This document shows, one piece after another, positions 5,989 through 53,152 of a DNA stretch of 64,000 nucleotides; the first letter of the stretch is position 1, and every line of letters starts with the position of its first letter. This DNA is from Candidatus Algichlamydia australiensis (lineage in GTDB: Bacteria; Chlamydiota; Chlamydiia; Chlamydiales; JAJFMI01). Location of the stretch: assembly GCA_033977065.1 (NCBI GenBank), contig JAXCHI010000002.1, positions 160,001-224,000 on the forward strand, given 5' to 3'. The notes under the pieces were generated by a model. It made no database searches and had not been told where the DNA came from. It saw only the letters and a list, made by a program, of their open reading frames with translations. Made by a program: the position numbers and the translations under genes.

Positions 5989-6149
5989 GATAGTGTCGTC
6001 AAAAGGCTATAATCAGATTATTTTTCATGTTTGCAGCTTATTTTTGTGCGGAAAATGAAGCTGAATTTGTAAATTCCGCTTCATTTGAGCACAAAAATGG
6101 AGCCCAAACATGAAAAATAAGATGGTTGTATGCTTTTGACGACGCTATC
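5989..6149. mobile_element. Fold-back MITE-like element, family A copy 1 (161 bp)
   Basis: GATAGTGTCGTCAAAAG...CTTTTGACGACGCTATC, palindromic over its whole length, TA on both sides; reverse complement of 36512-36672 with one difference seen. Confidence 0.92.
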
Positions 6150-6188
6150 TAGACAACTCGGTCAAAATAATCCAAAAGCTAGATGAAA

Positions 6189-6208
6189 GGCACCCCGAAA
6201 GGGGCGCC
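6189..6208 (-). terminator. Likely intrinsic terminator after nrdB
   Basis: ggcacccc-gaaa-ggggcgcc hairpin 11 nt past the nrdB stop, followed by a short U tract on the minus strand. Confidence 0.6.
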
Positions 6209-6219
6209 CATTGAAGAGA

Positions 6220-7260
6220 CTACCAAGTGAGGCTGGCAGAAGATTGGTACTCGTTGACGCGGGTTTCAAAGAAGTTCTTCTCTTTGCCCAGATCAATTGT
6301 TTCGCTCATCCAGGGGAAGGGGTTGCTCGATCCATAGAGCGCTTTGAGGCCGATACGCTCGAGGCGACGGTCAGCGATGTGCTGCACGTACTCGCGGAAC
6401 ATCGGAGCCGTGAGGCCGAGGATGCCTTTAGGAAGGCAGTCAACAGCGTACTGATACTCCAGTTCAACAGCCTCTTTGATCAGACCGATGATGTGCTGCT
6501 GGAACTCGGGGGTCCAGAGGTGGGGATTTTCCTCCTTGATTCCGTTAATCAAGTCGATGCCAAAGTTCAAATGGATGGTCTCATCGCGCAGAATGTATTG
6601 GAACTGCTCGCCGATTCCGGTCATTTTATTTTGGCGGTGTAGAGAGAGAATCATTGCAAAGCCGCTGTAGAAGAAGAGACCTTCCATAATGATATAATAG
6701 CCGATCAGGTTTTCTAAGAATTTTTGCGCACCTTCAGTTGTTTCAGTTGTGAAATTTTCGTTCAGCATATCTTCGGTAAGCTGCATCTCAAATTTATCTT
6801 TAGCTTGTATAGCAGGGATTTCGTTGTACATGTTGAAGATTTCACCTTGGTCAAGGTTAAGAGACTCAACTATGTAGTGGAAGGTGTGAGTGTGGATCGC
6901 TTCTTCAAACCCTTGGCGTAGGAGATATTGGCGCGCTTCGGGGTTAGTCAGATGTTTATAGATACCGAGAACAATGTTGTTGCCAACTAAGCTCTCTGCT
7001 GTGCTAAAGAAGCCGAGGTTGCGCATGATCAGCCGGCGCTCTGCTTCTGTAAGCTCATTAGACTTCCAAAGTTCGATGTCTTTTGCCATCGGTACTTCTG
7101 TTGGCATCCAGTGGTTAGCACAACCATTGAGATAGTGCTCCCATGCCCAACCATATTTGAGGGGCATCAGTTGGTTGACATCAACTTTGGTGCAGTTAAT
7201 CAGTTTTTTTTCATTTGCTTGGACGCGCTTATTTTCGCCGTCTTTAATATGTTCTTCCAT
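6220..7260 (-). CDS. nrdB: Ribonucleotide reductase beta subunit, class Ic (Mn/Fe) type
   Basis: EEAIHTHTF (Phe at the radical-Tyr position), STAESLV (Glu first ligand), [16 protein letters not shown]. Confidence 0.96.
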
Positions 7261-7276
7261 TATTAACCTCTTTTTT

Positions 7277-7439
7277 AGGAGACACTGAACGACTCATGCA
7301 CCGTTATCTGGGCCGATAAATTCTAGAAGAGATTATTTTCGATCTCCATCAACTTGCAAAAGTTGATTGCGATTTCCAAATAATCTTTTCTAGATTTTTC
7401 AGCTCGGTCTAACGGCACAGCAGCTATTCAGCGGCTCCT
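7277..7439. mobile_element. Fold-back element, family C copy 1 (163 bp), filling the nrdA-nrdB spacer
   Basis: AGGAGACACTGAA...TTCAGCGGCTCCT ends, central atcaact/agttgat hairpin; homologous to 10805-10967. Confidence 0.88.
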
Positions 7440-7444
7440 TTTTT

Positions 7445-10400
7445 TTATTGACAGCTCTCGCATCCCTCTTCGAGATTGCATACTGGTACATCTACTTTTT
7501 CAGCGCGATCAACTTTGACGCGGGCAGAGGGGGATTCGCTCTTCATCCAGCGCGGTTGCAGTCCGCGTTTATTGATGTCTGTTGTAGATTTTTCTACTTG
7601 CGTGGCTCCAAGTGTACGCAGATAGTAGGTTGTTTTCAAGCCGCGTTTCCACGCTAACATGTACATCTGGTGCAGTTTTTTTCCACTCGGTTCACCCATG
7701 AAGAGATTGAGGGATTGGCCCATATCAATCCATTTTTGACGACGCGAGCCACACTCGATAATCCATTCGGGATCAATCTCAAAACAAGTCGCAAAGAGTT
7801 GTTTAACATCATCTGGAATGCGCTCAATTTCACTGATGACGCCATCAAAATATTTTAGATCATCCAGCATCTCTTCATCCCAGAGGTTCATTGACTTCAA
7901 CTTTTCAATGAGGTGGGTGTTAGGTACTGTAAACTCACCAGAGAGGTTGGATTTAGCAAAAAGATGCTTGTAGGTCGGCTCAATGGTAGGAGTGACTCCA
8001 GCAATATTGGAAATCGTTGCTGTTGGAGCGATAGCCATTGTATTGGAGTTGCGCATACCAAATTGCTTGATATGGTTGCGTACGGGTTGCCAATCCATGC
8101 GAGTCGTGCGATCTACTTCAAAGTTGCCGCCACGCTCTTTTTCAACTAAGTCAAGGGTGTCGATTGGAAGAAGACCACGATCCCATTTTGACCCCTTGAA
8201 ACTTTCGTAGGCTCCACGCTCTTTTGCTAGCTCACTGGAGGAGAGGATAGCGTAGTAGGAGATCATCTCTTGACTCTTATCAGCAAACTCAACGGCTTCA
8301 TGTGAGGCAAAAGAGATCTCTTGCATGTAGAGCGCATCTTGGAAGCCCATTACGCCAAGACCGATAGGACGGTGGCGTGCATTGGCATTTTTGGTTTCTG
8401 GAATGGGGTAGAAATTGATGTCGATCACATTATCAAGCATGCGAATTGCGGTGCGCACAGTTTTGGCAAGACGCTCTTCATTGATACCTTGGGGTGTGGT
8501 GTGTTTAGCAAGGTTGACAGAGCCAAGGTTGCAGACAGCTGTCTCTTTATCAGAGGTATTTAAAAGAATCTCTGTACAGAGGTTGGAGCAGTGCACGACG
8601 CCTTCGTGATCTTGTGGAGAGCGGATGTTTGAGGGATCTTTGAACGTGATCCAGGGGTGGCCTGTTTCAAAGAGCATGCTGAGCATTTTTCGCCAGAGGG
8701 TCATCGCTTCCATTGTTTTGAAGCTGCGAATTTTTCCTTCTGCTGCCATCTTCTCGTACTCCTCATAGCGTTTTTCAAACGCTGCACCATAAAGATCGTG
8801 TAGATCGGAGACTTCATCAGGACTAAAGAGCGTCCAGTTACCATTTTCTGCCAAGCGTTTCATGAAAAGATCGGGAATCCAGTTGGCAGTATTCATGTCG
8901 TGGCAGCGGCGACGCTCATCACCCGTATTTTTGCGTAGTTCTAGGAAATCTTCGATGTCAAGGTGCCACGTTTCCAGGTAACAACAGCTCGTACCTTTGC
9001 GTTTCCCGCCCTGGTTTACAGCTACAGTGGTGTCATTCACAATTTTTAAGAAGGGGACAACGCCCTGGCTCTGACCATTGGTGCCTTTGATACGGGCTCC
9101 GGTGGCGCGTACATTGGTCCAGTCGTTGCCGATACCGCCGGCCCATTTTGCTAGCTGCGCATTATCGGAAATCACTTTAAAGATGTGCACGAGATCATCG
9201 TAGACAGTGCCGAGGAAGCAAGAGGAGAGCTGCGAGTGGTTGGTACCGGAGTTAAAGAGAGTAGGTGTTGAAGAGACAAAGTAAAACTGTGAAAGCAGAT
9301 TGTAAAACTCAATTGCACGCTCGGTTTTTTTCTCTTCGCGAATGGCAAGACCCATTGCTACACGCATCCAGAAGACTTGTGGCGTTTCAATGCGGCGTCC
9401 CTCATCGTGAATGAAGTAGCGATCGTAGAGCGTTTGAATCCCCAAGTAAGTGAAAAGAAGATCATTTTTTAGGTCCATCGCTTCAGCTAAGCGATCGAGA
9501 TCAAAATCTAAAAGTTCTTCTGAAACACGATGGATGCTAATGCCGTGCTTGATATACTTTTTCAAGTAATCTTTGTGCTCTTTAATCAGTCGTGGGTCGC
9601 TGGCAGAGACGCCGATTGTTTCGCGATAAATCTGGTCAAGAAGAAGTCTGGCGGAGGCAAATGAGTAGTTAGGATCGACTTCAATTTTGGCTCGTGTTGC
9701 CATAATAAGAGCTGTATCGATCTCCTCCTCTTTAATCCCTTCGTAGAAGTTGAGAGTGGTATTGTGCACAAGAAGGTCGACATCAACATCTTTCAAGTCA
9801 CGACAAGCAAACTGTAAGCGTCTTCTAATTTCTGATTCGGTAAGCTGCTTCTCTTTGCCCTCACGATCCGTGTAAGTGAAATATTTCTCTTCTTTGATCT
9901 CTCTTTCTGCTGCAATTTCGGAGGGAGCTTTCTGTTGGCCCACCAATGATCTATAGAGAATGTACTCCTTAGCAACATCAAAATAGCCCTCATGCATCAA
10001 GGCATCTTCAATACTATCTTGGAGTTTGTGCAGTGTGAGCGTACCTCCCTCTTTCACAAGAAGCATCGCTTTTTCTACAACAATTTCTGTAAGGAGGTTG
10101 ACAGCTGAGATTACCTCTTCTGGTGAGGTTCCTTGGATATGGAATGTACGGTGAAAAGCTTTTTCAATTGAGGAGGCAATTTTAATCGGCTTAAAGCGCA
10201 CAGGAGCGGTGCTGCCTTCGCGGAAAATTTTAAGGTTTTCGGGAGAGTCTTCACGGATCTGTTTGTGGTGATCGCGGTAGATGATATAATCGCGAGCAAC
10301 ATCGTGATGGCCTTTCTTCATCAAAGTGACCTCAACTAAATCCTGAATCCCTTCTACAGTAATGGAGATGCCCTTTTGAGCGAGCTCTGTGATCTGTTCC

Positions 10401-10651
10401 ACAACAAGGTTTGTGAGATTTTCAATCGATTTTGCCACATCTTCTGGAAGAGGATTGGGGGTTGCGACTTTTTTCGTATCGCGAAACGCAAGCTCAATCG
10501 CTTTTAAGATCAGTTCTTTATGAAAGGGAACAATCGTACCATTACGTTTGACCACCGTAAATGTGGTGATCGTACCTTTTTTCATGCTGCCCGCAATTTT
10601 ACTAATCAGTTTTTCTTTGGGCTCTCTTCCTGCTCTTTTTGTCTCTCTCAT
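7445..10651 (-). CDS. nrdA: Ribonucleotide reductase alpha subunit with multiple N-terminal ATP cones
   Basis: VVKRNG cone, [29 protein letters not shown]-terminal CESCQ. Confidence 0.97.
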
Positions 10652-10664
10652 ATTTCTCCTCGAA

Positions 10665-10712
10665 TTACCATATATTGTGGTTATAACCTTTCCATTACAC
10701 TATATATTGTAG
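10665..10712. promoter_or_regulatory. Tandem NrdR boxes upstream of nrdA
   Basis: ttaccatatattgtgg (10665-10680) and acactatatattgtag (10697-10712) match acaCwAtATaTwGtg; starts 32 bp apart. Confidence 0.88.
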
Positions 10713-10804
10713 AACGATAGATTAAGTCTAGGAAAAAAATTCCTTCCTATGAACGCGTGTTTTGGCGTGACAAGAGTCTGTTTTTCTGTTATAAATGAAG
10801 TATG

Positions 10805-10967
10805 AGGAAACATTGAACAATTCATGTACCGCTATCTCGGCCGAGAAATTCTAAGAAACTGCATTTTCAATCTTCATCAACTTAATACAGTTGATTGCGA
10901 TCTCCAAATGAAGTTTTTTAGAATTTTCGGCTCGACCTACCGGCACAGCAACTGTTCAGTGTTTCCC
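10805..10967. mobile_element. Fold-back element, family C copy 2 (163 bp)
   Basis: AGGAAACATTGAAC...GTTCAGTGTTTCCC followed by TA; colinear with 7277-7439. Confidence 0.88.
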
Positions 10968-10969
10968 TA

Positions 10970-11133
10970 AGGAGATACTGAATAACTGCTCTTTTCGAGA
11001 AGAGATCAAAAAATGAGGACAAATTGGTTTTGGAGAACGGAGCTAACTCCAATATGAGTTAGTGAGTTTGAAAAACCGATTTGGACCAATTTTTGATCCC
11101 TTATCGAGAAGTCTGAGTTATTCAATGTTTCCC
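10970..11133. mobile_element. Fold-back element, family D copy 1 (164 bp), abutting C2 via a shared TA
   Basis: AGGAGATACTGAATAAC...GTTATTCAATGTTTCCC, TA-flanked, central ctaactc/gagttag; reverse-complement homolog at 52990-53152. Confidence 0.88.
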
Positions 11134-11152
11134 TAAGAGAAGGATTAAAGTC

Positions 11153-11977
11153 ATGCGACAAGTCTATCTTGTTCCGAATATCATCACAGCATTTGGGCTC
11201 TCATGCGGTCTTTACGTAATCTTTAAGGCTAACCTTATTGGAGAAGACATGGGCATATATGGTGTACTTTTATCCTCCTCTCTTCTTTTGATTCTCGCTT
11301 CGTTTGCAGACTTTCTTGATGGAGCAGTTGCGCGTGTACTGCATGCAGAAAGCGAATTTGGATTGATGTTTGACTCCCTTTCCGATGCGATCACTTTTGG
11401 AGTAGCACCTTCAGTCCTCCTTGTGAAAAGTCTTTCACCAGAACTTGGCACGCCCCTTTCTTTCTTTGTTGTGTTAGGGGCGATGCTCTTTTCTCTCTGC
11501 GGCGTTTTGCGTCTTGTTCGCTACAATGTAAAAGCGGCAGAGAAAAAGGAAAAACCTAAAGAAGAAAAACCGAGTTTTACTGGCTTGCCTATTCCCTCTG
11601 CAGCTCTCGCTGCTCTCTCAATCAATCTCTTTCTTAACTCTCCAAAAGGAGAGCTCTGGTTTCCGATGAGCATGATGACAAAATCGATCGTTCTCACTCT
11701 TTGCACACTCTTTGTCGGCTGTCTGATGGTTTCCAAAATCAAATTTCCTAGCCTCAAAGCACTGCACATCCGTGTCCCATCCGTACACCTCCTCTTTGCA
11801 ACTGTGATCTTTGCCATATTTTTGCTCTACGGCATTCTCTACCAATTTACTCTTGTCTTTACGATCCTTACTTGGGGTTATATCTTCACAGCCCTCGCTC
11901 TTCTCGTTACGCATTATATCGTCGGTAAGCGCACAAATGCCCTCAAAGCTTTCGATCCCGACGACGAAGAGGAATAA
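11153..11977 (+). CDS. pssA: CDP-diacylglycerol--serine O-phosphatidyltransferase
   Basis: DFLDGAVAR...SEFGLMFDSLSDAITFGVAP CDP-alcohol phosphotransferase motif; FTGLPIP. Confidence 0.93.
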   Translation: MRQVYLVPNIITAFGLSCGLYVIFKANLIGEDMGIYGVLLSSSLLLILASFADFLDGAVARVLHAESEFGLMFDSLSDAITFGVAPSVLLVKSLSPELGTPLSFFVVLGAMLFSLCGVLRLVRYNVKAAEKKEKPKEEKPSFTGLPIPSAALAALSINLFLNSPKGELWFPMSMMTKSIVLTLCTLFVGCLMVSKIKFPSLKALHIRVPSVHLLFATVIFAIFLLYGILYQFTLVFTILTWGYIFTALALLVTHYIVGKRTNALKAFDPDDEEE

Positions 11978-12026
11978 AAATTTTACTCTTATTTTGTAAA
12001 AAGAGAATTTTTGGTACAATATTCCC

Positions 12027-13157
12027 ATGAGTATTAAAGAATTTCCTTTAAATTTAGCGCTTCCTTCATTTGGACAAACGGCTTTCCTCTCCTGGGGGTT
12101 GTGTCAGCTTGGATTGAGTCATCTTCAATCTAGAAGTCCTTATATTCAAAATAAAATTGTAGACAGGCGTCACACACTTCATACTGTAAATTCTTTTATT
12201 AGCTATTCAACGCTCGCATTTTTTTCCTATCGAGTAGTGAATGTGATACAGTACGGCGAATCTTGGGGCGTCCTAGAACCAGTAAGAAAGCTATTCTGTG
12301 AATTCAGGAGCTCTCCATTTATTCAATCTTCTTATAAATCGACAGTAACACTCTCAGAAATGACTGAAAAAATCTGCAGGAATTATATTGGAAATGATTT
12401 AACTTTCTTTGCTGCTCTTATGCTAGGATCGTTTTTCTTTATGGCTGTTTCAGGAGTTATAATAACGGTTTCAATATTGGCAGTAACTCGTTTTCACACT
12501 GCATTGCAGGATATCTCTAAAAAAACGAATTCACGTTGCTTGCCTTCAGAGGGTTTTGAGGATGTAGAAGATAAGATAAGTGTGGAATGGATAAATTCCC
12601 CTTATCAAAATACGCTGCAGTTTGATCACTTGCTTTCTCTTGTTGCAACAGTTGCGTTTGCTGCTTTAGCCGAGCAAAAATGGGCATTTCTTGTATTAGT
12701 GGTAGCGCAGATTAGCGCGGTAGTTACTGTGGCAAAATGGAAAACATTAAAATTCTCTTCAAAAGAAATAGAGTTGGAGAAAGTGAATGAGGGGCCTCAA
12801 AAATGCAAATTTCACTATATTTTTCCGGTAATTGAGTCTGCATCAGCAGGTACATATTTTTGCACGAATCACGAATTTCCTTTAATTAAAATTGTAGAGT
12901 CAATTTGTCAACAGCTAAATAGAGCTAAAATTAAGATTAAAAATCGACATACAGACCATCATTGGGAATACAACAAATTTTTGTATGATCGTATTTCGTA
13001 CAAAGTGACCGTCGAAAACAAAAACCTTCCTAGATGTAAACATGAGTGCAAAGCGCCACCTCGAAATGTATTTAGTGTGCAATTTTTCGATCGCCATATA
13101 GATCAAAAAAGAAAAGTGTCAGAGGAGTGGATTCCGGCCCAAATCACAGTTGTATAG
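12027..13157 (+). CDS. Hypothetical AT-rich membrane protein, possible effector
   Basis: 376-aa ORF with hydrophobic segments and a Cys/His-containing C-terminus. Confidence 0.7.
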   Translation: MSIKEFPLNLALPSFGQTAFLSWGLCQLGLSHLQSRSPYIQNKIVDRRHTLHTVNSFISYSTLAFFSYRVVNVIQYGESWGVLEPVRKLFCEFRSSPFIQSSYKSTVTLSEMTEKICRNYIGNDLTFFAALMLGSFFFMAVSGVIITVSILAVTRFHTALQDISKKTNSRCLPSEGFEDVEDKISVEWINSPYQNTLQFDHLLSLVATVAFAALAEQKWAFLVLVVAQISAVVTVAKWKTLKFSSKEIELEKVNEGPQKCKFHYIFPVIESASAGTYFCTNHEFPLIKIVESICQQLNRAKIKIKNRHTDHHWEYNKFLYDRISYKVTVENKNLPRCKHECKAPPRNVFSVQFFDRHIDQKRKVSEEWIPAQITVV

Positions 13158-13236
13158 GGGATACTGAATAAAGAACCCATCCTGGTAAACAAGTTTTTGT
13201 CACTTTCTCTTATTTTGTCCAGTACTGAGATTTAAA

Positions 13237-13353: not shown

Positions 13354-13356
13354 TAT

Positions 13357-17481: not shown

Positions 17482-17645
17482 AAACCCGAGTTGCTACCCC
17501 CTTCCCCCTTTGGAGAGTGCCTTTTCGCGACCTACTTAACTTCAACTCTCAGAAATGTTTATTAAACATTCCCTTCGAGTTGAAATTAAGTATCCCATCA
17601 AAAATCCTTCTCTCCATAGGAGAAATTGGGTAGCAATTCGAGTTT
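17482..17645. mobile_element. Fold-back element, family E copy 1 (~164 bp)
   Basis: AAACCCGAGTTGCTACCC...GGGTAGCAATTCGAGTTT, central aatgttt/aaacatt; homolog at 26503-26667. Confidence 0.85.
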
Positions 17646-17794
17646 TAAAAAAAGAGAGGAGTATGGCTGGTCAAACTACTCTTATTCGGCATGAAGGCGG
17701 GACTCAAAATGGAGCTAAAGATGGCTCGCATGTTAGAAGCTAGAGTATTGATTGCATAGCCCCAAAAACACCTTACAGTGTAAAACTCAAGTTG

Positions 17795-18451
17795 TTAACC
17801 AATTTCTTCTAAGGCGAGATTCTTCTCATGAAAATGCATTGCGTGTGAACTCTCTTTACTCAGGCCCATTTCTTTATACGAGAATGAAGCTTCCAAATTA
17901 GGAAGTCTTTTATATCCTAAACTTTCCCAAAAAGTAGTTAGACTTTTGTATTCAGTAGGCATCCTTTTGTCAGATTTATCACGGAAAATTTCACATAAAA
18001 CAACTTTTTCAAATTTCTTTAGTTCTTTCAAGAATTTTTCAAAAGCCAAATACATTTTCTTTCCTGTGCCTTTATTTCTAAACTCCTTCAAAAGCATGAT
18101 TTCACCTAAATAGTAAACTTTATTCATTGGAAGGTTTTTTTTAAGGAACACCTCTTGGACTTCCTCCATCGATTCGCTTACCGGAATTCCGGTAACAGCA
18201 CCAATAACAGTCCCACCTTCAATTGCTAAAATAAATAAAGCATTTTGAGTTTCGGCGTAGATTTGAAGATACTTTTCTTCCCCATCATAACTTCCATCGT
18301 ATAGGTATGGCCACTCTTTAAAAACAACCATTCTAAGTCTAGCAAGCTCGCGTAAATATGGAAGTATCTCTTTTCCTTGTAAGCTAATAATTTCAATGTT
18401 TTTCTTGTAAGTCATATTAAAAATCGAAGCGAAGCAAAGCAAAAAGGTCAA
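17795..18451 (-). CDS. GNAT family acetyltransferase (start may be 18415)
   Basis: EWPYLYDG, YLGEIMLLKEFRNKGTG acetyl-CoA motif, FWESLGY. Confidence 0.88.
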   Translation of the reverse strand: MTFLLCFASIFNMTYKKNIEIISLQGKEILPYLRELARLRMVVFKEWPYLYDGSYDGEEKYLQIYAETQNALFILAIEGGTVIGAVTGIPVSESMEEVQEVFLKKNLPMNKVYYLGEIMLLKEFRNKGTGKKMYLAFEKFLKELKKFEKVVLCEIFRDKSDKRMPTEYKSLTTFWESLGYKRLPNLEASFSYKEMGLSKESSHAMHFHEKNLALEEIG

Positions 18452-18562: not shown

Positions 18563-18725
18563 GTACTCTGTAACAGAAAATTTTAGCATTATTTTTACGT
18601 TAAAGCCTCGGGATTGAACTATCGAAAATCACCTCGTATTTGATTAATACTAGGTGACTTGCGATAGCCCAATCGCGAGAGCTTTCACGTTAAAAAGAAT
18701 AGCAAAATTTTCTGTTACAGAATAC
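18563..18725. mobile_element. Fold-back element, family B (163 bp)
   Basis: CTA-GTACTCTGTAACAGAAAATTT...AAATTTTCTGTTACAGAATAC-TAG; palindromic throughout. Confidence 0.88.
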
Positions 18726-19798: not shown

Positions 19799-19920
19799 TA
19801 AGGCAAGTGCTGAACAGGTCACGATTTCCGAAAAAGCTTCGAAAATCGGTCGAAATTAATTTTTCGAACTCGCTAACTCTTATGAAGTTAGCTCTGTTCT
19901 CCAACATCAATTTTGCCTCA
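19799..19920. repeat. Diverged, right-truncated family D copy
   Basis: gaactcgctaactcttatgaagttagctctgttctccaa colinear with the D2 core. Confidence 0.8.
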
Positions 19921-19948
19921 ATAACCAAAATAACCAAGGAGGGACCTT

Positions 19949-26502: not shown

Positions 26503-26667
26503 AAAACTTAAGTTGCTGCCCCCCTTTCCCCTCTGAAGAGATCCTTTTTGCGACCTGTTTCGTTTCAAATTTCAGAAATGTTTAACAAACATTCCTTCAA
26601 TTTGAAACGAAACATCTCATCAAAAATCCCTCTCTCTATAGAAGAAACTGGGTAGTAACTTAAGTTT
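26503..26667. mobile_element. Fold-back element, family E copy 2 (~165 bp)
   Basis: AAAACTTAAGTTGCTGCCC...GGGTAGTAACTTAAGTTTT; colinear with 17482-17645. Confidence 0.85.
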
Positions 26668-36281: not shown

Positions 36282-36707
36282 GAAGCAGGGGAATCTCAGT
36301 AAATACGGTAAGTTTAGGCGGGGTGTGGACAGAGAAGCTTGCAGAAAAGATGGAAAAAGAGTCGCAAGACTCTGGAGAATCTGTAGAAAAGCTGCGCGTA
36401 AATCGCGTGCAAAATATTCCTCTAAAAAAATATGCCGAGCTATCTGAAGTGGCAAGTGTTGTAGAGCAAATGTTAGGGGATTTGACAAGCCATCTTACTA
36501 GGCAAAATTTAGATAGCGTCGTCAAAAGCATACAACCATCTTATTTTTCATGTTTGGGCTCCATTTTTGTGCTCAAATGAAGCGGAATTTACAAATTCAG
36601 CTTCAATTTCCGCACAAAAATAAGCTGCAAACATGAAAAATAATCTGATTATAGCCTTTTGACGACACTATCTAGTTCTAGATGGAGGGTTTACCTCAGC
36701 TTATTAG
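36242..36707 (+). pseudogene. SDR oxidoreductase C-terminal fragment interrupted by element A2
   Basis: RGISVNTVSLG...IPLKK...HLTRQNL, then element, then VLDGGFTSAY*. Confidence 0.85.
36512..36672. mobile_element. Fold-back element, family A copy 2 (161 bp) with TA duplication
   Basis: Removing the element and one TA restores caa aat tta gtt cta gat gga (QNLVLDG). Confidence 0.93.
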
Positions 36708-36730: not shown

Positions 36731-36796
36731 ATCAAAATAACCTTTTCTAGAATTTTTCGACCGAGATAGCGGTGTATGAGTGATTCAGTGTTTCCA
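36731..36796. repeat. One arm of a family C element (reverse orientation)
   Basis: Matches the reverse complement of the C1 left arm and ends in TA. Confidence 0.8.
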
Positions 36797-43859: not shown

Positions 43860-43860
43860 T

Positions 43861-43964: not shown

Positions 43965-44199
43965 TGCCAATAGAGTTAAGCTACATATCAGCTCTTCTTC
44001 TATTTTTGCTCCATTTGTATAACAAAAAATATTGTAAATGTTTCAATAAATCTTGTTGTAAGAGTGGCTGTGAGTAAAAATATTTATCAAGCTGTTTTTG
44101 CAGTAAGGCTCTGTGCTCGATAAAAATTTTGCCCAAAGTGAATCGCAACCAAATTGAAGCAATGCTGTTTCAAGCGATGAGTTCATAGCTCATCGGCCT

Positions 44200-44241
44200 A
44201 TGAACCTATCTCACTAAAATTGTTTTATAAGATAGGTTCAT
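44200..44241. repeat. Short inverted repeat, possibly a collapsed element or terminator
   Basis: 12-bp perfect IR atgaacctatct/agataggttcat. Confidence 0.6.
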
Positions 44242-45880: not shown

Positions 45881-46558
45881 TCACCTTTGTTTCTTCGAAA
45901 CATAGTCAACGGGTAGCTTACCGTATATGTCTCTCTCAAAGAGGGACAAAGGAGCTTTTTCTATAATTTTTTTAACGACTTCATGTGAGTTAGAGGCTGC
46001 TGCAAGGTGTAGTGCTGATTGTTTTTGGCGATTTAGGGGTAAAAAGAGGGATGCATTCCACTTTAGTAATAGAAAAAACATTTCTTTATGTGTAGCAAAT
46101 TTTGAGCAATTGATAGCTGAAGAGCCTGTCTCCGGATCTCTCCAGTTAGGATCAGCTCCCTTTTTTAACAGCAGTGCTGTGCCGCTCTTCCAATTTTTTT
46201 TAATTGCAGAATGCAGTGCAACTTCTAGGTAGTTACTATTATTTACTAATTCATCAATTCCGGTGGCTAATAGTTTGACATTTTTAGTGCAAATAGCTCT
46301 ATAAACTCTAGGAGCAGGTTTTTGTAATTTTTTCCAATATTGTGAATTGGTTTTTCTAGATTTGGAGGGAGGGCTATTTTCGTCTTCTGAAAGTATAAGA
46401 TAAGTTAAATCTTCAATCTCAGAAGAATCAAAGTTAGAAAGTAGACTATCTACAGTTCTTTGTGAAAATGTTCTTGACCCTAGAATAGATTGGGGCGAGG
46501 CTCCTCCTTGGAGATCGGGCCTTATTGTTTTAAGGGAATTAGTTGGCAAAATATTCAT
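45881..46558 (-). CDS. Ankyrin-repeat protein, paralog 2 (C-terminally truncated, possibly a pseudogene)
   Basis: Colinear with the N-half of paralog 1 (ETGSSAINCSKFAT identical); stops at YVSKKQR. Confidence 0.8.
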   Translation of the reverse strand: MNILPTNSLKTIRPDLQGGASPQSILGSRTFSQRTVDSLLSNFDSSEIEDLTYLILSEDENSPPSKSRKTNSQYWKKLQKPAPRVYRAICTKNVKLLATGIDELVNNSNYLEVALHSAIKKNWKSGTALLLKKGADPNWRDPETGSSAINCSKFATHKEMFFLLLKWNASLFLPLNRQKQSALHLAAASNSHEVVKKIIEKAPLSLFERDIYGKLPVDYVSKKQR

Positions 46559-46815
46559 GTCATTTATTGTATCATTAAATAATAATAAAATCAATCAAAT
46601 GGTGTTAATGTTTTAATTTTCGGTGTTTTTAATAAAAAAAATATTTAAAAAATTTTTTTAAAATTAAAAATTCATAGGGTTGCTCATTTTTTTTGACTAA
46701 TGTTCCTTGTCAAACCTCAAAAGATTTGAATTTGTCGCATTAGCAATAAAACTTAAGCATCTGTGCGGGCTTTTATTATGTAAAATAATTTTTGGAGGTT
46801 CCCACCCCCAAAGAC

Positions 46816-46947
46816 AAATTTTACAGACAAAAACGCCGCACAGCCACTCATCTTTTTCCGCTCGCTCCTTGGTAAACCCTCGGGTTTACCTGCGTCGCGA
46901 TCGAAAAAATCTAAGCACCTGTGCGGCGTTTTTGTAATGTAAAATTT
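46816..46947. repeat. Fold-back element, family F (132 bp), just downstream of tmRNA
   Basis: aaattttacagacaaaaacgccgcacag...ctgtgcggcgtttttgtaatgtaaaattt, central ggtaaacc/ggtttacc. Confidence 0.85.
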
Positions 46948-46952
46948 ATCTT

Positions 46953-47351
46953 TGGAGGTGGAGAGAATCGAACTCTCGTCCTCAGCTAGTTTCCTAGGTT
47001 TGACTACATGCTTATTGCCTTAAGTATTTAAGAACTCACCCTTATGTAAGACACCCCATGTAGAGCGAGCTCTATCCCATATGTGTCTTGAGAAAATGCC
47101 CTATGGAATACAAGCACTCCTCATACCAAGATAAATGACGATCGTACACGAACTCTCGGTCCGATTCTGTGTGGATCGCGCTTAGGATGTCGGGTTAGGA
47201 CGCTAAGCTATCGCTCAAGCTTAAGCAGCTAGAGCAAAATCGCAATTTTCTTCGCCAATTACAATGCTAGTCGGATGATTTAGGAGGCCAACCGACGTCC
47301 TCCGCATGCCAAAAAATAGGTAAGCTACCAAGTCGAAACCTGTTCACCCCC
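46953..47351 (-). ncRNA. ssrA: tmRNA
   Basis: 5' GGGGGTGAACAGGTTTCGAC, 3' GAGAGTTCGATTCTCTCCACCTCCA with G3.U pair; tag frame 47256-47221 reads GEENCDFALAA*; CCA not encoded. Confidence 0.95.
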
Positions 47352-47520
47352 ATCTGTAATTATACCAGAAAAAACCTGTACAAGCAAACTAGCAACTGGT
47401 TAACAATCAGTAAGTTAGACTGGTGTTAGTTGGTGCTTTCACGGTTTTTCTGAAATTAGTGTAGGTTTTTGGGCTTTTTTTGGGTAGGACAAAAGCCTAA
47501 TTTTTAGTAAGATAAGGGCT

Positions 47521-50500
47521 ATGTTTACGACCGAAAAAGAGAGTTTCTCAAGCCGCGAAGAGCGCATTCTTAACTTGTGGAAAGAAAAAGATATTTTTAA
47601 AAAGTCAGTGGAGAACCGGAAGGGTTCAAAACTATTTTCCTCCTATGATGGCCCCCCGTTTGCCACGGGGTTGCCCCACTATGGCCATATTTTAGCGGGT
47701 ACGATTAAAGATGTTGTTTTGCGCTACAAGACGATGCAAGGGTTTTATTTGCCAAGGCGTTTTGGTTGGGACTGTCACGGTTTGCCGGTGGAAAATGAGA
47801 TTGAGAAGGCGAAGAATTTGGGTGGAGCGCCCTCAATTGAAAAATTTGGGATTGGCAATTTCAATGAGGAGTGTCGCAGCATTGTTTTCCGCTTTGTTGA
47901 GGAGTGGAAGAAGACGGTTGATCGGATGGGGCGCTGGGTCGATTTTGATCAGACGTATAAGACGATGGATCCGACCTATATGGAGTCGGTCTGGTGGGTC
48001 TTTTCTGAACTTTGGAAAAAGGGTTTGGTCTATGAGGGGTTTAAGGTGATGCCCTTTTCAGCAAAATTGGGAACCCCACTTTCTAATTTTGAAGCGAATT
48101 TAAACTACCGCGATGTAGATGATCCTTCGTTGACGGTTGCGATGCCTCTGAAAGAGGATGAGAATACGAGCTTATTGATCTGGACAACGACCCCTTGGAC
48201 GCTGATTTCAAACTTGGCCGTGATTGCCAATCCAAAGATGCGTTATGTCAAGGTAGAGAAAGAGGGGCGTTTCTATATCTTGGCTAAGAGTCGTTTGGAG
48301 CACTATTTTGAGGGGGCAAAGGCTGTAGAAGAGTTTTCTGGAGAAGACCTTGCTGAAAAAGAGTATTTACCGCCATTTGAATATTTTTCTGATCGTGCTG
48401 GGTTTCGCGTTCTGCTGGATGAATTTGTGGGCGAGGAAGATGGCACAGGTCTTGTGCATGCTGCGCCTGCGTTTGGAGAGATGGACTTTTTTGTCTGCAA
48501 GCGTGAGGGGATTGAACCAGTCTGTCCGATTGATCAGAATGGAAAGTTTACAAGTGAGATTCCTGAGCATGAGGGCCAGTTTGTCAAAGAGGCAGATAAA
48601 GCGATTATCAAACGTTTGAAAGAGGCGGGTAGGGTTTTTGATCATGGGACGATTCGTCACAGATACCCGTTCTGTTGGCGCTCTGATAGTCCTCTGATCT
48701 ATCGCGCAGTGAGCACTTGGTTTGTCTCGGTGGAAAAAATTAAGGAGCAGTTGATCACGGCAAATGAAAAAATTCATTGGGTGCCGGGGCATTTGCAAAA
48801 GGGACGTTTTGGGAAGTGGCTTGAAAATGCGCGCGACTGGGCGATCTCTCGCAATCGCTATTGGGGTACACCGATCCCAATTTGGCGTGCAGAGGATGGA
48901 GAGTGCATTGCAATTGGGTCGAAAGAGGAGCTTGAGAAGCGTACAGGAAAGAAAATTGAAGATTTTCATCGCCACTTTATTGATGATCTGACGTTTGAAG
49001 AAAATGGCAAGACGTTTTCGCGAGTGTCGGAAGTTTTCGATTGCTGGTTTGAATCGGGATCGATGCCCTATGCGCAAAACCACTATCCCTTTGAAAATAA
49101 AGAGTTGGTTGAGGAGGGCTTCCCAGCTGAATTTATTGCGGAGGGGCTTGATCAGACTCGCGGCTGGTTTTACACGCTCAATGTACTCTCTGTAGCGCTT
49201 TTTAACAGGCCCGCTTTCAAAAATGTGATTGTCAATGGGATCTTGCTTGCCGAAGATGGCAACAAGATGTCCAAGAGCCTGAAGAACTATCCGGAGCCGG
49301 AAATTGTTTTTGAAAAATTTGGTGCCGATGCAGTAAGGCTTTATCTACTCAATAGCCCCGCAACGCATGGCGATGACTTGCGCTTTTGTGAAAAAGGCGT
49401 TGAGCAAGTGGTGCGAGGGATGCTTTTGCCTCTTTGGAATAGCTACTTTTTCCTTGCGACGTATGCAAAAATTTATGGCTGGCAGCCAGGCGCAGATCTT
49501 GAAAAGCCGGAGGCGGTCATTGATCGCTGGATTCTCTCTAAGCTGCAGACTTTGATCTCTGATGTGCAGAAAAGTATGGATGAGTACCAATTAAGCGATG
49601 CGGTTCCTCCATTTTTGCGATTCATTGATCAGGTGACTAATTGGTACATTCGCCGCTGTCGTCCGCGTTTTTGGGCGGATGAAGATTCATCTGATCGCCG
49701 AGAAGCGTTCCAAACACTCTATCAAGTTTTGCAGAGTTTAGTCCGCATTGCGGCGCCGTTCATTCCTTTTATCAGTGAGGCGATCTACCAAGGTTTGCGC
49801 AGAGAAAAGGATCCAGAGTCTGTTCACCTTACAGATTTTCCAAAAATGAATCCTAATATGCAGGATGAAAATCTTGAAAAAGAGATGGCTCTTGCGCAGA
49901 CAGCTGTGAGTCTGGGGCATGCTCTTCGCAAAGAGGAGCGTATGAAAGTGCGCCAGCCTCTACCAAAAGTCTTTTTAATTTCGTCCGACAAGCAAGTCTT
50001 GACTGCCTTAAAAAGCAGCGAAAATTTGATCCTAGATGAGCTCAATGTTAAGGAAGTTGTCTACTCTGAAAATGAGAAAGAGTTTGTGGAAATCAAAGTG
50101 AAACCCAATTTCGCAGAGTTGAAAAAGCGAGCAGGTGCCAAAATGGGCCCAATTTGTAAAGCGGTTGGCTCGCTTTCAACAGAACAGGTTAACACCCTTC
50201 TTAATGGAAAATCTGTTGAGATCGAGGAAAATTTTGCTCTGACGGAAAAAGATCTTTTGATTGAGCGCAAAGTAAAGCAAGGTCTTGTCGCAAGTTGCGA
50301 AGGCGCACTAACTGTTGCTCTAGACTTGACCCTAAGTGAAGAGCTTAAACTTGAAGGTTTGGCCCGAGAAATTGTCAACAAGCTGAATACGATGCGTCGT
50401 GAAGCGAATCTTGAGGTTACAGATCGCATTGAGGTCCAGATAGAGGGTTCTGATCGCGTGAGCCAAGCGTATGAGCTGCATAAAGATTACATTTGTGGAG

Positions 50501-50598
50501 AAGCACTCGTAACAAAGTTAGAGATGGTTTCGAACACAGGTCAGGAGTGGGATTTGAATGGAGAAATGGCTAAAATAGCTATAAAAATAACTGCTTAG
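47521..50598 (+). CDS. ileS: Isoleucyl-tRNA synthetase, type 2
   Basis: DGPPFATGLPHYGH, GWDCHGLP, WTTTPWTL, KMSKS. Confidence 0.98.
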   Translation: MFTTEKESFSSREERILNLWKEKDIFKKSVENRKGSKLFSSYDGPPFATGLPHYGHILAGTIKDVVLRYKTMQGFYLPRRFGWDCHGLPVENEIEKAKNLGGAPSIEKFGIGNFNEECRSIVFRFVEEWKKTVDRMGRWVDFDQTYKTMDPTYMESVWWVFSELWKKGLVYEGFKVMPFSAKLGTPLSNFEANLNYRDVDDPSLTVAMPLKEDENTSLLIWTTTPWTLISNLAVIANPKMRYVKVEKEGRFYILAKSRLEHYFEGAKAVEEFSGEDLAEKEYLPPFEYFSDRAGFRVLLDEFVGEEDGTGLVHAAPAFGEMDFFVCKREGIEPVCPIDQNGKFTSEIPEHEGQFVKEADKAIIKRLKEAGRVFDHGTIRHRYPFCWRSDSPLIYRAVSTWFVSVEKIKEQLITANEKIHWVPGHLQKGRFGKWLENARDWAISRNRYWGTPIPIWRAEDGECIAIGSKEELEKRTGKKIEDFHRHFIDDLTFEENGKTFSRVSEVFDCWFESGSMPYAQNHYPFENKELVEEGFPAEFIAEGLDQTRGWFYTLNVLSVALFNRPAFKNVIVNGILLAEDGNKMSKSLKNYPEPEIVFEKFGADAVRLYLLNSPATHGDDLRFCEKGVEQVVRGMLLPLWNSYFFLATYAKIYGWQPGADLEKPEAVIDRWILSKLQTLISDVQKSMDEYQLSDAVPPFLRFIDQVTNWYIRRCRPRFWADEDSSDRREAFQTLYQVLQSLVRIAAPFIPFISEAIYQGLRREKDPESVHLTDFPKMNPNMQDENLEKEMALAQTAVSLGHALRKEERMKVRQPLPKVFLISSDKQVLTALKSSENLILDELNVKEVVYSENEKEFVEIKVKPNFAELKKRAGAKMGPICKAVGSLSTEQVNTLLNGKSVEIEENFALTEKDLLIERKVKQGLVASCEGALTVALDLTLSEELKLEGLAREIVNKLNTMRREANLEVTDRIEVQIEGSDRVSQAYELHKDYICGEALVTKLEMVSNTGQEWDLNGEMAKIAIKITA

Positions 50599-50613
50599 TT
50601 ATTTTTCGTCTCC

Positions 50614-50702
50614 TTCTCGCTGCGCCAAATCGAATCTCAGCCGTCGTGCCGTACGCAGTACTGCCACGCCGTCAGATATCCAATTTTGCTTTGCGATAAG
50701 AA
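50614..50702. repeat. GC-rich imperfect hairpin downstream of ileS
   Basis: Arms ttctcgc/gcgataagaa around cgtcgtgcc-gtac-gca-gtac-tgccacgccg. Confidence 0.55.
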
Positions 50703-51000
50703 CCCGCTGTAGCCGCTTCGCGCAGTGCGAGTTTTTTTTGCAGTCGCTTCGCGTATCAATAAATCTACTTCAAACTAAGAACCTGCTGTAGCCACTTCGC
50801 TCGGTATGAGCTTATTACGATTGTTTTGCTCTTTTGTAGTTGCCTCCTTGATTTTTGACCAAATAAAAAAATATTTACCTTGATTTTTGACCATGAAGGT
50901 ATTGATTTAACCTTGAAATACAACCATGGGTAGTCATGTGAAGCGTTTAGTTGTTTGGATTTCGTAAAATTAAATTTTAGGATTACAAAAAAAAGTAAAA

Positions 51001-51112
51001 TTTACCTTTGAAAAGGGCCTCGACTCAAAACGAGTTGTTAAAGAGTTATCCTTTGCAATGAGAGAAAAAATTACTCCAACTGAAACTCTCTTTGTTTTTG
51101 ATGAAGTAGTGA
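51001..51112 (+). pseudogene. Remnant of an AAA_14/DUF4143-type ATPase gene
   Basis: FTFEKGLDSKRVVKELSFAMREKITPTETLFVFDEV ends in a Walker B-like motif. Confidence 0.5.
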
Positions 51113-51114
51113 CT

Positions 51115-52947
51115 TTACTCGATCTCTTGCGGGAGTCTGTGACGCTTGCGTTGGTAGTAGTTCCAAAGAAATATGAGGATGGCGGCTATAATCCAGATGA
51201 TAAAGTGAGGGAGTGTTAGCCACGGGTAGGGCGGCTGAACTGGCTGACCAAAGCGCGAGCCTGGTGGCCAGAAGATAAAGTCGGGTGAGCCGCGAAGGTT
51301 TCCTTGCGGGACAAATCCAAAGACGCGACTATCGCCGCTCATGGCGTAGTTATCACCAAGGGCGAGGTAGTGTTTTTCTGGGATTTTTAGCCCGTATGTT
51401 TGTAGAAAGTCGCAATCGATTTCTCCTTCTGGAGTAATTGGGGGGCCATGATCGATAAAGGGGAGGTAAGGTGCTGGCTTTGCTTTCTCTTCCTCAACAA
51501 ATTGTATAAGGTTTTTTTCATCTTTGTCGATAACTTTAGCTCCCATAACGTAGAGATCTCCATTGCGAAACCAGGCGAATCGCGAAGGGCGCAGGTGTTG
51601 GCACTCTTGGTTTGAGCCAAAGCGTGTATCAAATTCAATCCCAAGATTAAAGAGTGCTTGTAGCTGTTTGTTATTGGGGTGATTTAGGGGGTAATCTTCA
51701 GGAAGTTTTTTTGAAATTCCCTGCCATTGGATCTTGTAAGCTCTACCTTCACGGATTTCAAAGGTGCCATTTTCAATTCCTCGTAGTGGAACGACATAGT
51801 AGGGGATTGACTGATCTTTCGGAATGTGTGTCCCATACCTGTAGGCGTAGCCATCTCGAACTGTAAAGCGCGCGGTATAGAGGCCGCGATGGAGATGGGT
51901 CAGCTGTTGCTGAGTGAGGGGAATGATGGAGCTCTCCGTTTTTAATGCGGGTCTTCTTCGACCATAAATATCTAGTTCGAGGCTGGCTTCTTTAAGAGAG
52001 GGATCGTGTGTAAGCTCAAGATAGAGAGCCGCACCTTTTGTAAGCTCATGATCGGTCCACGCTTCTACTTCTTCTGTTGTCAGAAGCTTGGCCATAGCGT
52101 AGTTGCGCATGCCCCAAAGCTGTCCGTAATCCTCGACACCTGGTACAAGCATTTTTCCACAGATATCTCCTCTTCCTATCTGTGTAAGTTTAGCAACAGG
52201 TTGATTCATTTGATAGAAGATTGCAGGAGAGTAGATACCTCCACGGGGGCGGTCTGGTGTGACGGTTTTGCCTCCAAATTGGAGAAAAGGGACATGGTCA
52301 ACGTAGGGGAGCTCCGGATATTGCAACTCATGTGTGATGTCATTTCCATTGCAATCTACTCCGTATAGCTTTCCTCCATAAAAATAGACGGTATCTCCAG
52401 GTTTTCCCATGAGTCGTTTAACGAGTTGTTTTTTACCTGGAAAGATATAAAAATAGCGCATCTCGCTATCAGGAATATCCATGTTTGCTGTCGTAAAGGT
52501 GAAAATACCAGAGCGCTGAACAAGGTCAGGATCAAAATAGAGGTGAGTCGGTTTGAGGGGGGTATTGATTCCAAATGTAGTTTTGCTAACAGAGAGGCGA
52601 TCTTTTTCTTGTAGGGTTGGACGCATAGAGCCCGTTGGGATTTCATAGAGTTCAAACCAGACTTGACGGATCAAGATTGCGGCGATAAGAGCAAATCCTA
52701 AACCTACTATGGAGCGAAGATGATCATAAAAATCTTTTTTGAGATAGGTCTTTGAAAACTCTGCAAGCATGTTAGTCGCTTGCGTTGCTTCGTCCCGATC
52801 GTGTTCGATAATCGCTTTTTGAGCGGTTTTAAGCTCTCGACAAATTGTATCGCGCTCTTCGCTGTTTAGCTGTTCTCTTTTACGTCTGTATTTTTTTAGA
52901 GTAGCAAAGAATATCTTCTTGCACTTGCGTAGGGATCTAAATCTCAT
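51115..52947 (-). CDS. lepB: Signal peptidase I (long chlamydial form)
   Basis: IPTGSMRPTL, LVKRLMGKPGD, LGDNYAMSGDSRVFGFVP. Confidence 0.95.
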   Translation of the reverse strand: MRFRSLRKCKKIFFATLKKYRRKREQLNSEERDTICRELKTAQKAIIEHDRDEATQATNMLAEFSKTYLKKDFYDHLRSIVGLGFALIAAILIRQVWFELYEIPTGSMRPTLQEKDRLSVSKTTFGINTPLKPTHLYFDPDLVQRSGIFTFTTANMDIPDSEMRYFYIFPGKKQLVKRLMGKPGDTVYFYGGKLYGVDCNGNDITHELQYPELPYVDHVPFLQFGGKTVTPDRPRGGIYSPAIFYQMNQPVAKLTQIGRGDICGKMLVPGVEDYGQLWGMRNYAMAKLLTTEEVEAWTDHELTKGAALYLELTHDPSLKEASLELDIYGRRRPALKTESSIIPLTQQQLTHLHRGLYTARFTVRDGYAYRYGTHIPKDQSIPYYVVPLRGIENGTFEIREGRAYKIQWQGISKKLPEDYPLNHPNNKQLQALFNLGIEFDTRFGSNQECQHLRPSRFAWFRNGDLYVMGAKVIDKDEKNLIQFVEEEKAKPAPYLPFIDHGPPITPEGEIDCDFLQTYGLKIPEKHYLALGDNYAMSGDSRVFGFVPQGNLRGSPDFIFWPPGSRFGQPVQPPYPWLTLPHFIIWIIAAILIFLWNYYQRKRHRLPQEIE

Positions 52948-52989
52948 GGCTGCATGTTAGAGTCTTATAAAGGTGTTGTCAAGTGCTTA

Positions 52990-53152
52990 TGGACATACTG
53001 AATAATTTAGACTTTTCGATAAGGGACCAAAAATTGGTCCAAATCGGTTTTTCTAACTCACTAACTCTTATGGAGTTAGCTTCGTTCTCCAAAACCAATT
53101 TGTTCTCATTTTTTCATCTTTTCTCGAAAAGAGCAGTTATTCAGATGTTTTT
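52990..53152. mobile_element. Fold-back element, family D copy 2 (163 bp)
   Basis: Reverse-complement homolog of 10970-11133; TA at 52988-89 and 53153-54, the latter inside the upstream gene's stop codon. Confidence 0.88.

Follow-up and report, generated by a model that had tools for sequence, protein, structure and literature searches.

The usual definition of a MITE rests on its termini, its size being regarded as incidental to how it arose. Rickettsia palindromic elements and YPAL are non-autonomous palindromic repeats of intergenic DNA, and Correia elements show a TA duplication. In the summary table of one article (PMC3184786 Table 1), the Correia elements of Neisseria (CREE/NEMIS) are intergenic fold-back MITEs of ~104-157 bp said to carry an IHF site, and the sizes listed for ERIC, RUP, Nezha, and MaeMITE run from 107 to 435 bp. 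The same article describes bcr1 of the Bacillus cereus group as mobile and ~155 bp long, with compensatory base-pair changes by which a long double-stranded structure is preserved (PMC3184786). Among the IS427-group elements tabulated elsewhere, 11 of 12 have a 2-bp duplication, with IS sizes of 832-865 bp (PMC3281130 Table 2).

The window, that is, the whole 64,000-nt stretch of DNA analysed here, holds nine full-length elements of comparable form, all of them end-to-end imperfect palindromes of 161-165 bp lying where an earlier note had placed them. The five families to which that note assigned them, A to E, are real, but two further families, F and G, and a separate 160-bp fold-back in the window had not been included.

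Fold-back families in the window and the genome

Both family A copies are 161 bp long, have TA on both sides, and match the nhmmer model over positions 1-161 (A1, 5989-6149, minus strand, E 1.7e-55; A2, 36512-36672, plus strand, E 3.5e-56). A solo B-type terminus, TAGTACTCTGTAACAGAAAA, adjoins A1 via a shared TA and was located by exact pattern match on the minus strand at 5969-5988 (G000:C2:165969-165988); no joint skipping A1 was seen among the contigs, which drop rare variants. The full-length B copy, B1 (18563-18725, plus strand, 163 bp), was placed by nhmmer and its cTA..TAg flanks. Family C is represented by C1 (7277-7439, plus strand, 163 bp, model 2-163, E 5e-45), which has a relative of 162 nt and 75% identity in the congener G001, and by C2 (10805-10967, plus strand, 163 bp, nhmmer), which is joined through one TA to the family D copy D1 (10970-11133, minus strand, 164 bp, model 2-162, E 3e-46). 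The second D copy, D2 (52990-53152, plus strand, 163 bp, model 2-156, E 2e-43), has a degraded right terminus and, as a query, gave 17 blastn HSPs of >=140 nt. The two nhmmer-detected copies of family E are E1 (17482-17645, plus strand), with a core of ~160 bp given its 7-bp target duplication, and E2 (26503-26667, plus strand, E 9e-48).

Scattered fragments, also reported earlier, are found genome-wide as many partial nhmmer matches, three of them in the window: a truncated D copy (19804-19922, plus strand, model 3-121, E 5e-28), a C half-element (36734-36795, minus strand, model 2-63, E 6e-12), and a truncated G copy (44109-44205, minus strand, model 68-172, E 9e-12). An extra E-type terminal arm at 17781-17819 was found as inverted repeat I6, 82% complementary to 17609-17647. 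The additional low-copy fold-back, H1 (46802-46961), was identified by a fold-back scan and blastn and is of uncertain MITE status; its right end overlaps by 10 nt the 3' end of the tmRNA gene (46952-47351, minus strand).

Using one nhmmer model per family to count and measure full-length copies throughout the genome, we found 34 copies of A (31 of them 161 bp), 16 of B (14 at 163 bp), 14 of C (9 at 163 bp), 19 of D (18 at 162-164 bp), and 13 of E (10 at 163-164 bp), which upholds for these families the common length of ~163 bp first noticed in the window. Together with F (15 copies, 162 bp) and G (11 copies, 173 bp), there are at least seven multi-copy, non-coding families of 161-173 bp with 11-34 full copies each, and A to G occupy 27,672 bp, or 1.5% of the genome. 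ORFs of >=150 aa cover 86% of the genome, and 105 of the 122 full copies overlap them by <10%.

The consensus sequences have self-complementarities of 0.67-0.83, and each folds, in agreement with the fold-back shape predicted earlier, as a single long hairpin with terminal stems of ~12-22 bp; the arms were recovered independently by an inverted-repeat search. The interiors are unrelated, as had been claimed: among 45 consensus pairs, just the C-D termini (positions 1-20) stand out, with z=12. Single-linkage clustering of repeat regions merged everything into one chain and was discarded, and loci L103-L106 contained no full fold-back by alignment.

Target sites, mobility, and transposases

The families are true non-autonomous MITEs, as seen in their target duplications, nested insertions, and a congener empty site, and the earlier description of them as non-autonomous and mobile is borne out. 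Copies of F inside G, with AT duplicated, and of G inside A, with TTTTGAC duplicated, provide paralogous empty sites, and an IS903-like IS lies inside A with a 9-bp duplication. One orthologous empty site was found, at the C2+D1 locus, where the insertion is absent from G001.

Flanks differ among families. TA/TA borders 33 of the 34 A copies; this TA is invariant, so the duplication is not separable from the element ends, and no empty A site was found. Family B lies in a CTAG context (cTA..TAg) in 13/16 copies. Families C and D are old, with duplications ambiguous at 2-4 bp and TA/TA in only 3/14 and 3/19 copies, respectively. Duplications of 2 bp (AT, AG, or AA) accompany 13 of 15 F copies. 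Family E has an exact 7-bp target duplication in 6/13 copies after its ends are shifted inward by 2 nt, and G has a 7-bp duplication in 10/11, every one different. The TA targeting once proposed for all five families thus holds for A and B and probably for C and D, but not for E. The 7-bp duplications of E and G mean that at least one further transposase type is involved. A single trans-acting mobilisation machinery for all families, which had been the original proposal, is unlikely, because duplications are 2 bp in A, F, and perhaps B, possibly 4 bp in C, D, and perhaps B, and 7 bp in E and G.

The earlier note took TA duplication as the mark of an IS630-type transposase, and the TA on both sides of A copies and the CTAG context of B fit IS630/Tc1-mariner MITEs. 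However, strict TA is confined to A and B, DDE_3 (IS630) is absent from the genome while controls matched in 5/14 genomes, and the A termini belong to another kind of IS, so we consider this origin highly improbable. The mariner Pfam family matched neither this genome nor any control genome, making that search uninformative.

A broken IS at G000:C2:415058-415817, with a DUF4096 ORF (E 7e-20) and a DDE_Tnp_1 ORF (E 1e-17), ends in a family A terminus adjoining TA and is the sole copy in the genome. The related genome G183 carries five identical intact copies of an ~840-bp IS with both family A termini, whose protein is 79% identical to that of the broken IS. Family A and the IS have in common termini of 15-16 nt and TA flanks, and the terminus pattern read backwards, as a control, gave 0 matches. 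The termini of family A are those of an IS5-family, IS427-group IS. The match is limited to the first ~16 nt, which rules out family A as a plain internal deletion of the IS.

Other candidate parents were rejected. The IS903-like IS5 element, the sole transposase among 25 long-repeat ORFs scanned, has termini unrelated to every family; the ends of both IS256 copies and of the plasmid DUF772 gene are likewise unrelated, and rve is present as a broken fragment only. A check for HUH/RAYT transposases gave no Y1_Tnp match in the genome, with controls matching in 6/14, and REP/REPIN sequences with RAYT are further excluded in that the elements are ~160 bp with duplications rather than 20-40-bp palindromes. 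The window's lack of a transposase is consistent with the published annotation table, and the assembly (93% complete) yielded no functional transposase for any family, though the A copies are 98% identical. Contig ends are not repeats. Searches for parents of B, C/D, and G gave MITE-sized pairs or solo termini only; none was found for E and F, whose termini were searched in 800 kb of G148, and family A itself was not found in 40 relatives.

Apparent constraint on length and fold

Most double changes across the arms keep Watson-Crick pairing (C 55:9, D 72:27, E 33:6, G 18:0, F 10:1), whereas control pairs in which the partner was shifted by 1-3 columns are for the most part not complementary (C: 4-12 vs 15-29). 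Even in the absence of selection, complementary double changes could arise if one arm served to repair the other in a hairpin that forms transiently. Substitutions greatly outnumber indel events per copy (26.1 vs 0.79 in C, 27.7 vs 0.47 in D, 17.3 vs 1.15 in E); the old families are ~30% diverged, yet their indels are few.

Similar sizes recur in related chlamydial genomes. G148 has F-like cores of ~161-162 bp, two other families of 161 bp, and A-terminus pairs of 157 and 159 bp, also 107 and 82 bp. B-like spans in G183 are 170 bp in 5/7 pairs, with another family of 164 bp; the B-like element of G186 is 167 bp, the C-like element of G001 is 162 bp, and B-like elements of 163, 166, and 167 bp occur in three genomes. 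G-type termini in other chlamydial MAGs enclose cores of 161, 173, and 174 bp. Related termini with diverged interiors thus keep the same length in other genomes. Length is not strictly fixed, as the 173 bp of G and the other lengths in relatives show, and the 400 kb scanned in G019 contain fold-backs of 72-109, 145, 212, and 308 bp with no 160-bp mode. The idea of a chlamydial class of such elements therefore applies to some lineages (coded f1, f44, and f8) but not to all. Helical-phase quantisation of length was rejected, since lengths in the related genomes are continuous over 157-169 bp.

Complementary double changes, rare indels, and a size shared elsewhere appear to support the earlier view that size and fold, not sequence, are constrained, and suggest that what can be moved depends on size and shape rather than on sequence. 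Our overall explanation, which we think reasonably probable, is that DDE transposases move these short non-coding MITEs in trans and that copying needs a ~160-bp rod. Such a rod would have ~80-nt arms, ~160 bp in all, and correct termini, and its arms would physically pair inside the cell, forming a hairpin or cruciform of DNA. Since lineages without the fold or the length would cease to multiply, sequence would drift freely while length and fold stayed fixed, and unrelated families would converge on one size. Against this explanation stand the failure to find a functional transposase in the assembly, the variation in length, and the differing duplication lengths, which imply more than one enzyme and hence no single machinery as the source of the one size. 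Candidates for what fixes ~160 bp are the synapsis of ends on stiff short DNA, the geometry of the hairpin, and a ceiling imposed by palindrome instability.

The common length might instead be history rather than function, if one ancestral ~160-bp fold-back had served as a scaffold on which termini and cores were swapped. The families are indeed mosaic. Besides the shared termini of C and D, D and H2 have centres that align in register (z 3.4), the termini of B show a weak likeness to those of G (z 3.1), and ~13 copies are hybrids in which a B left arm is combined with an A-like right arm. Because of this mosaicism, some length sharing may be inherited. As a general account, however, we find an inherited scaffold unlikely. 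Similarity among A, B, E, F, and G is not above shuffled controls, so any common ancestor would lie far back, and lengths would have drifted since then unless indels were selected against; indels are instead rare in C and D despite ~26-28 substitutions per copy, and the differing duplication lengths imply different enzymes. Common sequence ancestry of the families was rejected on the same comparisons, in which no pair apart from C-D exceeds z 3.8.

Physical limits acting on any enzyme are another possibility, with a floor set by the stiffness of short double-stranded DNA, which has to loop to bring its two ends together, the replication instability of long palindromes setting a ceiling, and elements piling up at ~160 bp between them. 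Measured against a mirrored null, four of the 10 consensus sequences (A, p.004; B,.008; H1,.010; E,.038) have A/T tracts phased at a 10-11.5-bp period, and G, at 173 bp, is about one helical turn above 163 bp, with G-type termini found at both 161 and 173-174 bp. An IS50 transposition study reportedly met limits of length and twist, which we count in favour of this account. Orientation follows GC skew (81:41), the weaker-hairpin strand tending to be the G-rich strand, as would fit hairpins forming at the replication fork; the bias is absent from the youngest family. On the other hand, the tracts of C, D, F, G, H2, and H3 are not phased, the 157-169 bp of relatives are not quantised by 10.5 bp, and a looping limit leaves the whole-element palindrome unaccounted for. 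We rate this two-sided limit as a little less likely still than an inherited scaffold.

A host function, in which a ~160-nt hairpin is retained as an RNA stabiliser, terminator, or protein-binding site whose role sets the size, seems very unlikely. Copies are nearly all intergenic, and certain known MITEs are described as changing mRNA stability or bearing promoters (PMC3184786), but selection against gene disruption already predicts that location. Moreover, orientation is unrelated to upstream gene direction (42:48), copies differ between congeners, as at the empty site in G001, and matching against any Rfam family at its gathering score returned the tmRNA alone in the window and nothing for the elements.

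A bolder reading is that shape acts as the gate for transposition in this clade, with the transposase, or a host factor working with it, acting on an extruded hairpin or cruciform with ~80-nt arms. We offer it only as a speculative possibility. Any sequence forming such a rod with suitable tips could then be amplified. If true, it would explain the repeated birth of unrelated families at one size, the co-varying arms, and why, in older families, the weaker hairpin comes to lie on whichever strand is left single-stranded at the fork during replication.

Significance and comparison with known systems

The literature on Algichlamydia, on MITEs in Chlamydiae, and in Simkania yielded no description of these elements, and the words 'palindrom', 'mobile', and 'insertion sequence' are absent from the text of the genome paper; as far as the literature search showed, this is the first account of MITEs in chlamydiae. 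The elements account for much of the symbiont's repetitive intergenic DNA and of the contig breaks in its short-read assembly, and the parent IS type is named for one family (A). Seven or more unrelated families coexist in one small genome, with sizes that agree within a few bases and are retained while sequences drift, and they form a natural data set for asking what a DDE transposase requires, physically, of a short transposon substrate.

Compared with the IS427-group IS (~840 bp, with DUF4096 and DDE_Tnp_1 ORFs), family A has the same termini and TA flanks, and the 2-bp duplication and IS size agree with the entries tabulated for that group (PMC3281130). Unlike its parent, which is broken in this genome, family A has an unrelated interior and is a palindrome throughout. 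ERIC, RUP, Nezha, and MaeMITE, as listed, resemble these families in being non-autonomous intergenic palindromic repeats, but among them, as among Rickettsia palindromic elements and YPAL, size varies by family, whereas here unrelated families in one genome share it. As described, bcr1 is similar in size, mobility, and pairing-preserving changes; it is, however, a single family with 5-bp duplications whose structure is discussed for RNA, while orientation here follows the replication strand and not transcription. Correia elements are likewise short intergenic fold-back MITEs. In a comparison by description rather than sequence, they form one family with two size classes, whereas here one size is shared by seven or more families that are unrelated.

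Fold-back families of nearly common length

The assembly of Candidatus Algichlamydia australiensis (seven contigs, 1,799,045 bp, G+C 42%) carries seven multi-copy fold-back families, A to G, which together cover 1.54% of the genome (27,672 bp), with no copy on its 87,402-bp plasmid. In this assembly, G000, the window corresponds to C2:160001-224000. All nine elements that the earlier note had read in the window, in families A to E, are present in place, and their arms were recovered independently by an inverted-repeat search; F and G are new. Profiles made from de novo repeat families and run over the genome with nhmmer gave 34 full copies of A (161 bp in 31, mean pairwise identity 0.98), 16 of B (163 bp in 14, 0.94), 14 of C (163 bp in 9, 0.69), 19 of D (162-164 bp in 18, 0.72), 13 of E (163-164 bp in 10, 0.74), 15 of F (162 bp in all 15, 0.955), and 11 of G (173 bp in 10, 0.91). 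The near-common length first claimed from the window thus holds genome-wide, with modes of 161-164 bp for A to E, and the outliers (116-158 and 186 bp) are individual copies with a deletion or expansion. An unbiased fold-back scan of the genome returned 125 candidates, 58 with outermost seeds 160-180 bp apart, and outside families A to G it picked up four further fold-backs of 160, 161, 164, and 168 bp at one to three loci each. Since the bacterial MITE sizes in one review table span 104 to 435 bp (PMC3184786, Table 1), six unrelated families at 161-164 bp are, by informal comparison, unexpected for independent draws.

The families also agree in fold, as had been proposed: consensus self-complementarity is 67-83%, and each predicted shape is a single long hairpin with a terminal stem of 12-22 bp and an apical stem of 7-10 bp. 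Their interiors are indeed unrelated, and C and D share termini only (z 12), the lone clear excess over shuffled controls among 45 consensus pairs. Marginal pairs, some involving the low-copy fold-backs H2 and H3, were F-H3 (z 3.8), D-H2 at their centres and in register (z 3.4), B-G at their termini (3.1), and F-H2 (3.0). Overlap with open reading frames of at least 150 aa, which make up 86% of the genome, is below 10% in 105 of the 122 full copies. We found no earlier account of families A to G in the literature; the genome paper gives 11 transposases, and a word check of it found no mention of palindromes, mobile elements, or insertion sequences (PMC11317633).

Two low-copy fold-backs adjoin RNA genes. 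H1 (window 46802-46961, 160 bp) overlaps by 10 nt the 3' end of the tmRNA gene (window 46952-47351), the sole match in an Rfam scan of the window, and its far terminus is an inverted copy of that 3' end. The single-copy, 164-bp L182 (G000:C4:162280-162443) likewise starts within tRNA-Tyr, 12 nt before the gene's 3' end, and closes with an inverted copy of that stretch. Because the layout is the same at both genes, these two may be other than ordinary MITEs. Separately, a hybrid element of about 110 bp in about 13 copies (for example, within G000 C4:390224-390500 and C2:110286-110700) fuses 47 nt from the start of B with a 63-nt A-like right arm; it is TA flanked and always adjoins a GC-rich module, about 170-250 bp long.

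Target duplications and candidate transposases

The elements of families A to G are transposon derivatives, and they do not share one target. The proposed TA targeting fits A (33 of 34 copies have TA at either end) and B (cTA..TAg in 13 of 16), the latter flank being compatible with duplication of TA within a CTAG target or of all four bases, CTAG, around a core of 161 bp, and fails for E, F, and G. Family G has 7-bp duplications in 10 of 11 copies, no two alike; in E, moving both ends inward by 2 nt reveals exact 7-bp duplications for 6 of 13 copies and leaves a core of about 160 bp; and 13 of the 15 F copies show 2-bp duplications (AT 10, AG 2, AA 1) around a 160-bp core. In C and D, whose age leaves the target ambiguous, TA/TA occurs in 3/14 and 3/19 and 4-bp matches in 6/14 and 6/19. 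Nested copies serve as paralogous empty sites, with AT duplicated where F lies within G and TTTTGAC duplicated where G lies within A. An empty orthologous site, which the earlier note had proposed to look for, was found in the congener G001 (genes about 75-80% identical), where the flanks of the adjoining C and D copies at window 10805-10967 (+) and 10970-11133 (-) are about 15 bp apart versus 345 bp here. C- and D-type elements often stand back to back via a single common TA (..CC-TTAA-GG..), as at window 10967-10970, G000:C3:71366-71369, and locus L105, and do so in another genome (G141) too; the edge of a pre-existing element appears to be a preferred insertion target.

The suggested IS630 origin was not borne out, as a transposase profile search gave no DDE_3 match in the genome with controls positive. 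Y1_Tnp, covering HUH/RAYT enzymes, had no match with controls positive; the mariner family had none in this genome or the control genomes; and rve was represented by one broken fragment. In the published annotation, IS903-like, IS256, DUF772, and Rpn genes appear alongside one IS5 fragment. This fragment (G000 C2:415058-415817) carries a DUF4096 and a DDE_Tnp_1 ORF, its 3' end is cut by an F copy, and it terminates in the outermost 14-16 nt of family A, with TA adjoining. Relatives occur in 18 further genomes of a 200-genome sample of the order. In G183, five identical copies of an IS of about 840 bp (protein identity 79%) have the family A terminus at both ends and TA flanks; the reversed terminus pattern gave no hits. 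Elements of the IS427 group listed in one table are 832-865 bp long, with 2-bp repeats in 11 of 12 (PMC3281130, Table 2). Termini, TA flanks, size, and repeat length together make family A an IS5/IS427-type MITE rather than one of IS630 type. Nor is A a plain deletion derivative of this IS, the two having nothing in common past the terminus. Parents of B to G were not found, the termini of E and F having been sought in 800 kb of G148, and a different type of transposase is suggested for E and G by their 7-bp duplications. An IS903-like IS5 element (G000:C3:388907-389996, 9-bp duplication) lies within a family A copy, so that IS activity of some kind must have followed the burst of A. The genome also holds several near-identical AAA-ATPase_like+PDDEXK_9 genes and YhcG-type PD-(D/E)XK nuclease genes (loci L003, L006, L015, and L016-L018), and its published table has four Rpn-family PDDEXK_2 genes.

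Probable arm pairing and strand polarity

Double differences from consensus at predicted pairs are mostly complementary (complementary:not 55:9 in C, 72:27 in D, 33:6 in E, 18:0 in G, and 10:1 in F, counted as sequences and not as independent events), and the balance reverses when the partner is shifted by 1-3 columns. Such changes suggest selection on the fold but could alternatively be the product of inter-arm repair in a transient hairpin; under selection or repair alike, these sequence patterns imply that the arms would pair in vivo. In C and D each copy has about 26-28 substitutions, against 0.79 (C) and 0.47 (D) indel events; in neutral bacterial DNA, indels are commoner. Both fold and length look constrained.

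The hairpins are also polar. In all 10 consensus fold-backs, mismatches on one strand are mainly A·C (46) versus G·T (8), so that the complementary strand forms the stronger hairpin, in 10/10 with RNA and 9/10 with DNA parameters. The weaker-hairpin strand is the locally G-rich strand in 81 versus 41 copies (binomial p 4e-4, families not being independent), with a strong bias in B (14:2), E (11:2), and F (12:3), followed by D (13:6), C (9:5), and G (6:5), and none in the youngest family, A (16:18). Orientation has no link with upstream gene direction (42:48). With the origin placed from skew alone, this pattern is consistent with the loss of copies that place their strong hairpin on the strand laid open at the fork during replication.

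Size class across genomes and known elements

In 800 kb of G148, from another family, fold-backs measure 82, 109, 139, 161, 161, 165, 166, 169, 173, 186, and 195 bp, including four F-like copies with cores of about 161-162 bp and A-terminus pairs spanning 157 and 159 bp; other A-terminus pairs there span 107 and 82 bp. A 400-kb sample of G183 gave 71, 164, 172, 172, 177, and 187 bp, with B-like pairs 170 bp across in 5 of 7. Single loci in G186 (B-like, 167 bp) and G001 (C-like, 162 bp) and 33 loci with G-type termini in other chlamydial MAGs (cores of 161, 173, and 174 bp) are similar in size, and a 400-kb sample of G019 gave 72-109, 145, 212, and 308 bp. The size class is thus a trait of some lineages, drifting by a few bases, and no phylum-wide law. 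The family A consensus (query window 5986-6152) also occurs on 158-200-nt contigs in metagenome runs X3, X4, and X6 of three other studies, with one difference in 166 nt and, in X3, a B-like terminus following; these short contigs likely represent a low-abundance relative of which the repeats alone assembled.

Helical quantisation of length is rejected, since lengths in related genomes are not quantised, and A/T-tract phasing is significant in just 4 of 10 consensus sequences. We rank first a size-and-fold requirement at the transposition step, which would set the length near 160 bp. An inherited mosaic scaffold common to the families ranks second, and a length range bounded by DNA stiffness on one side and palindrome instability on the other third. 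Part of this behavior has precedent: an IHF site is already known in Correia elements, as are compensatory changes in bcr1, a MITE of about 155 bp (PMC3184786).
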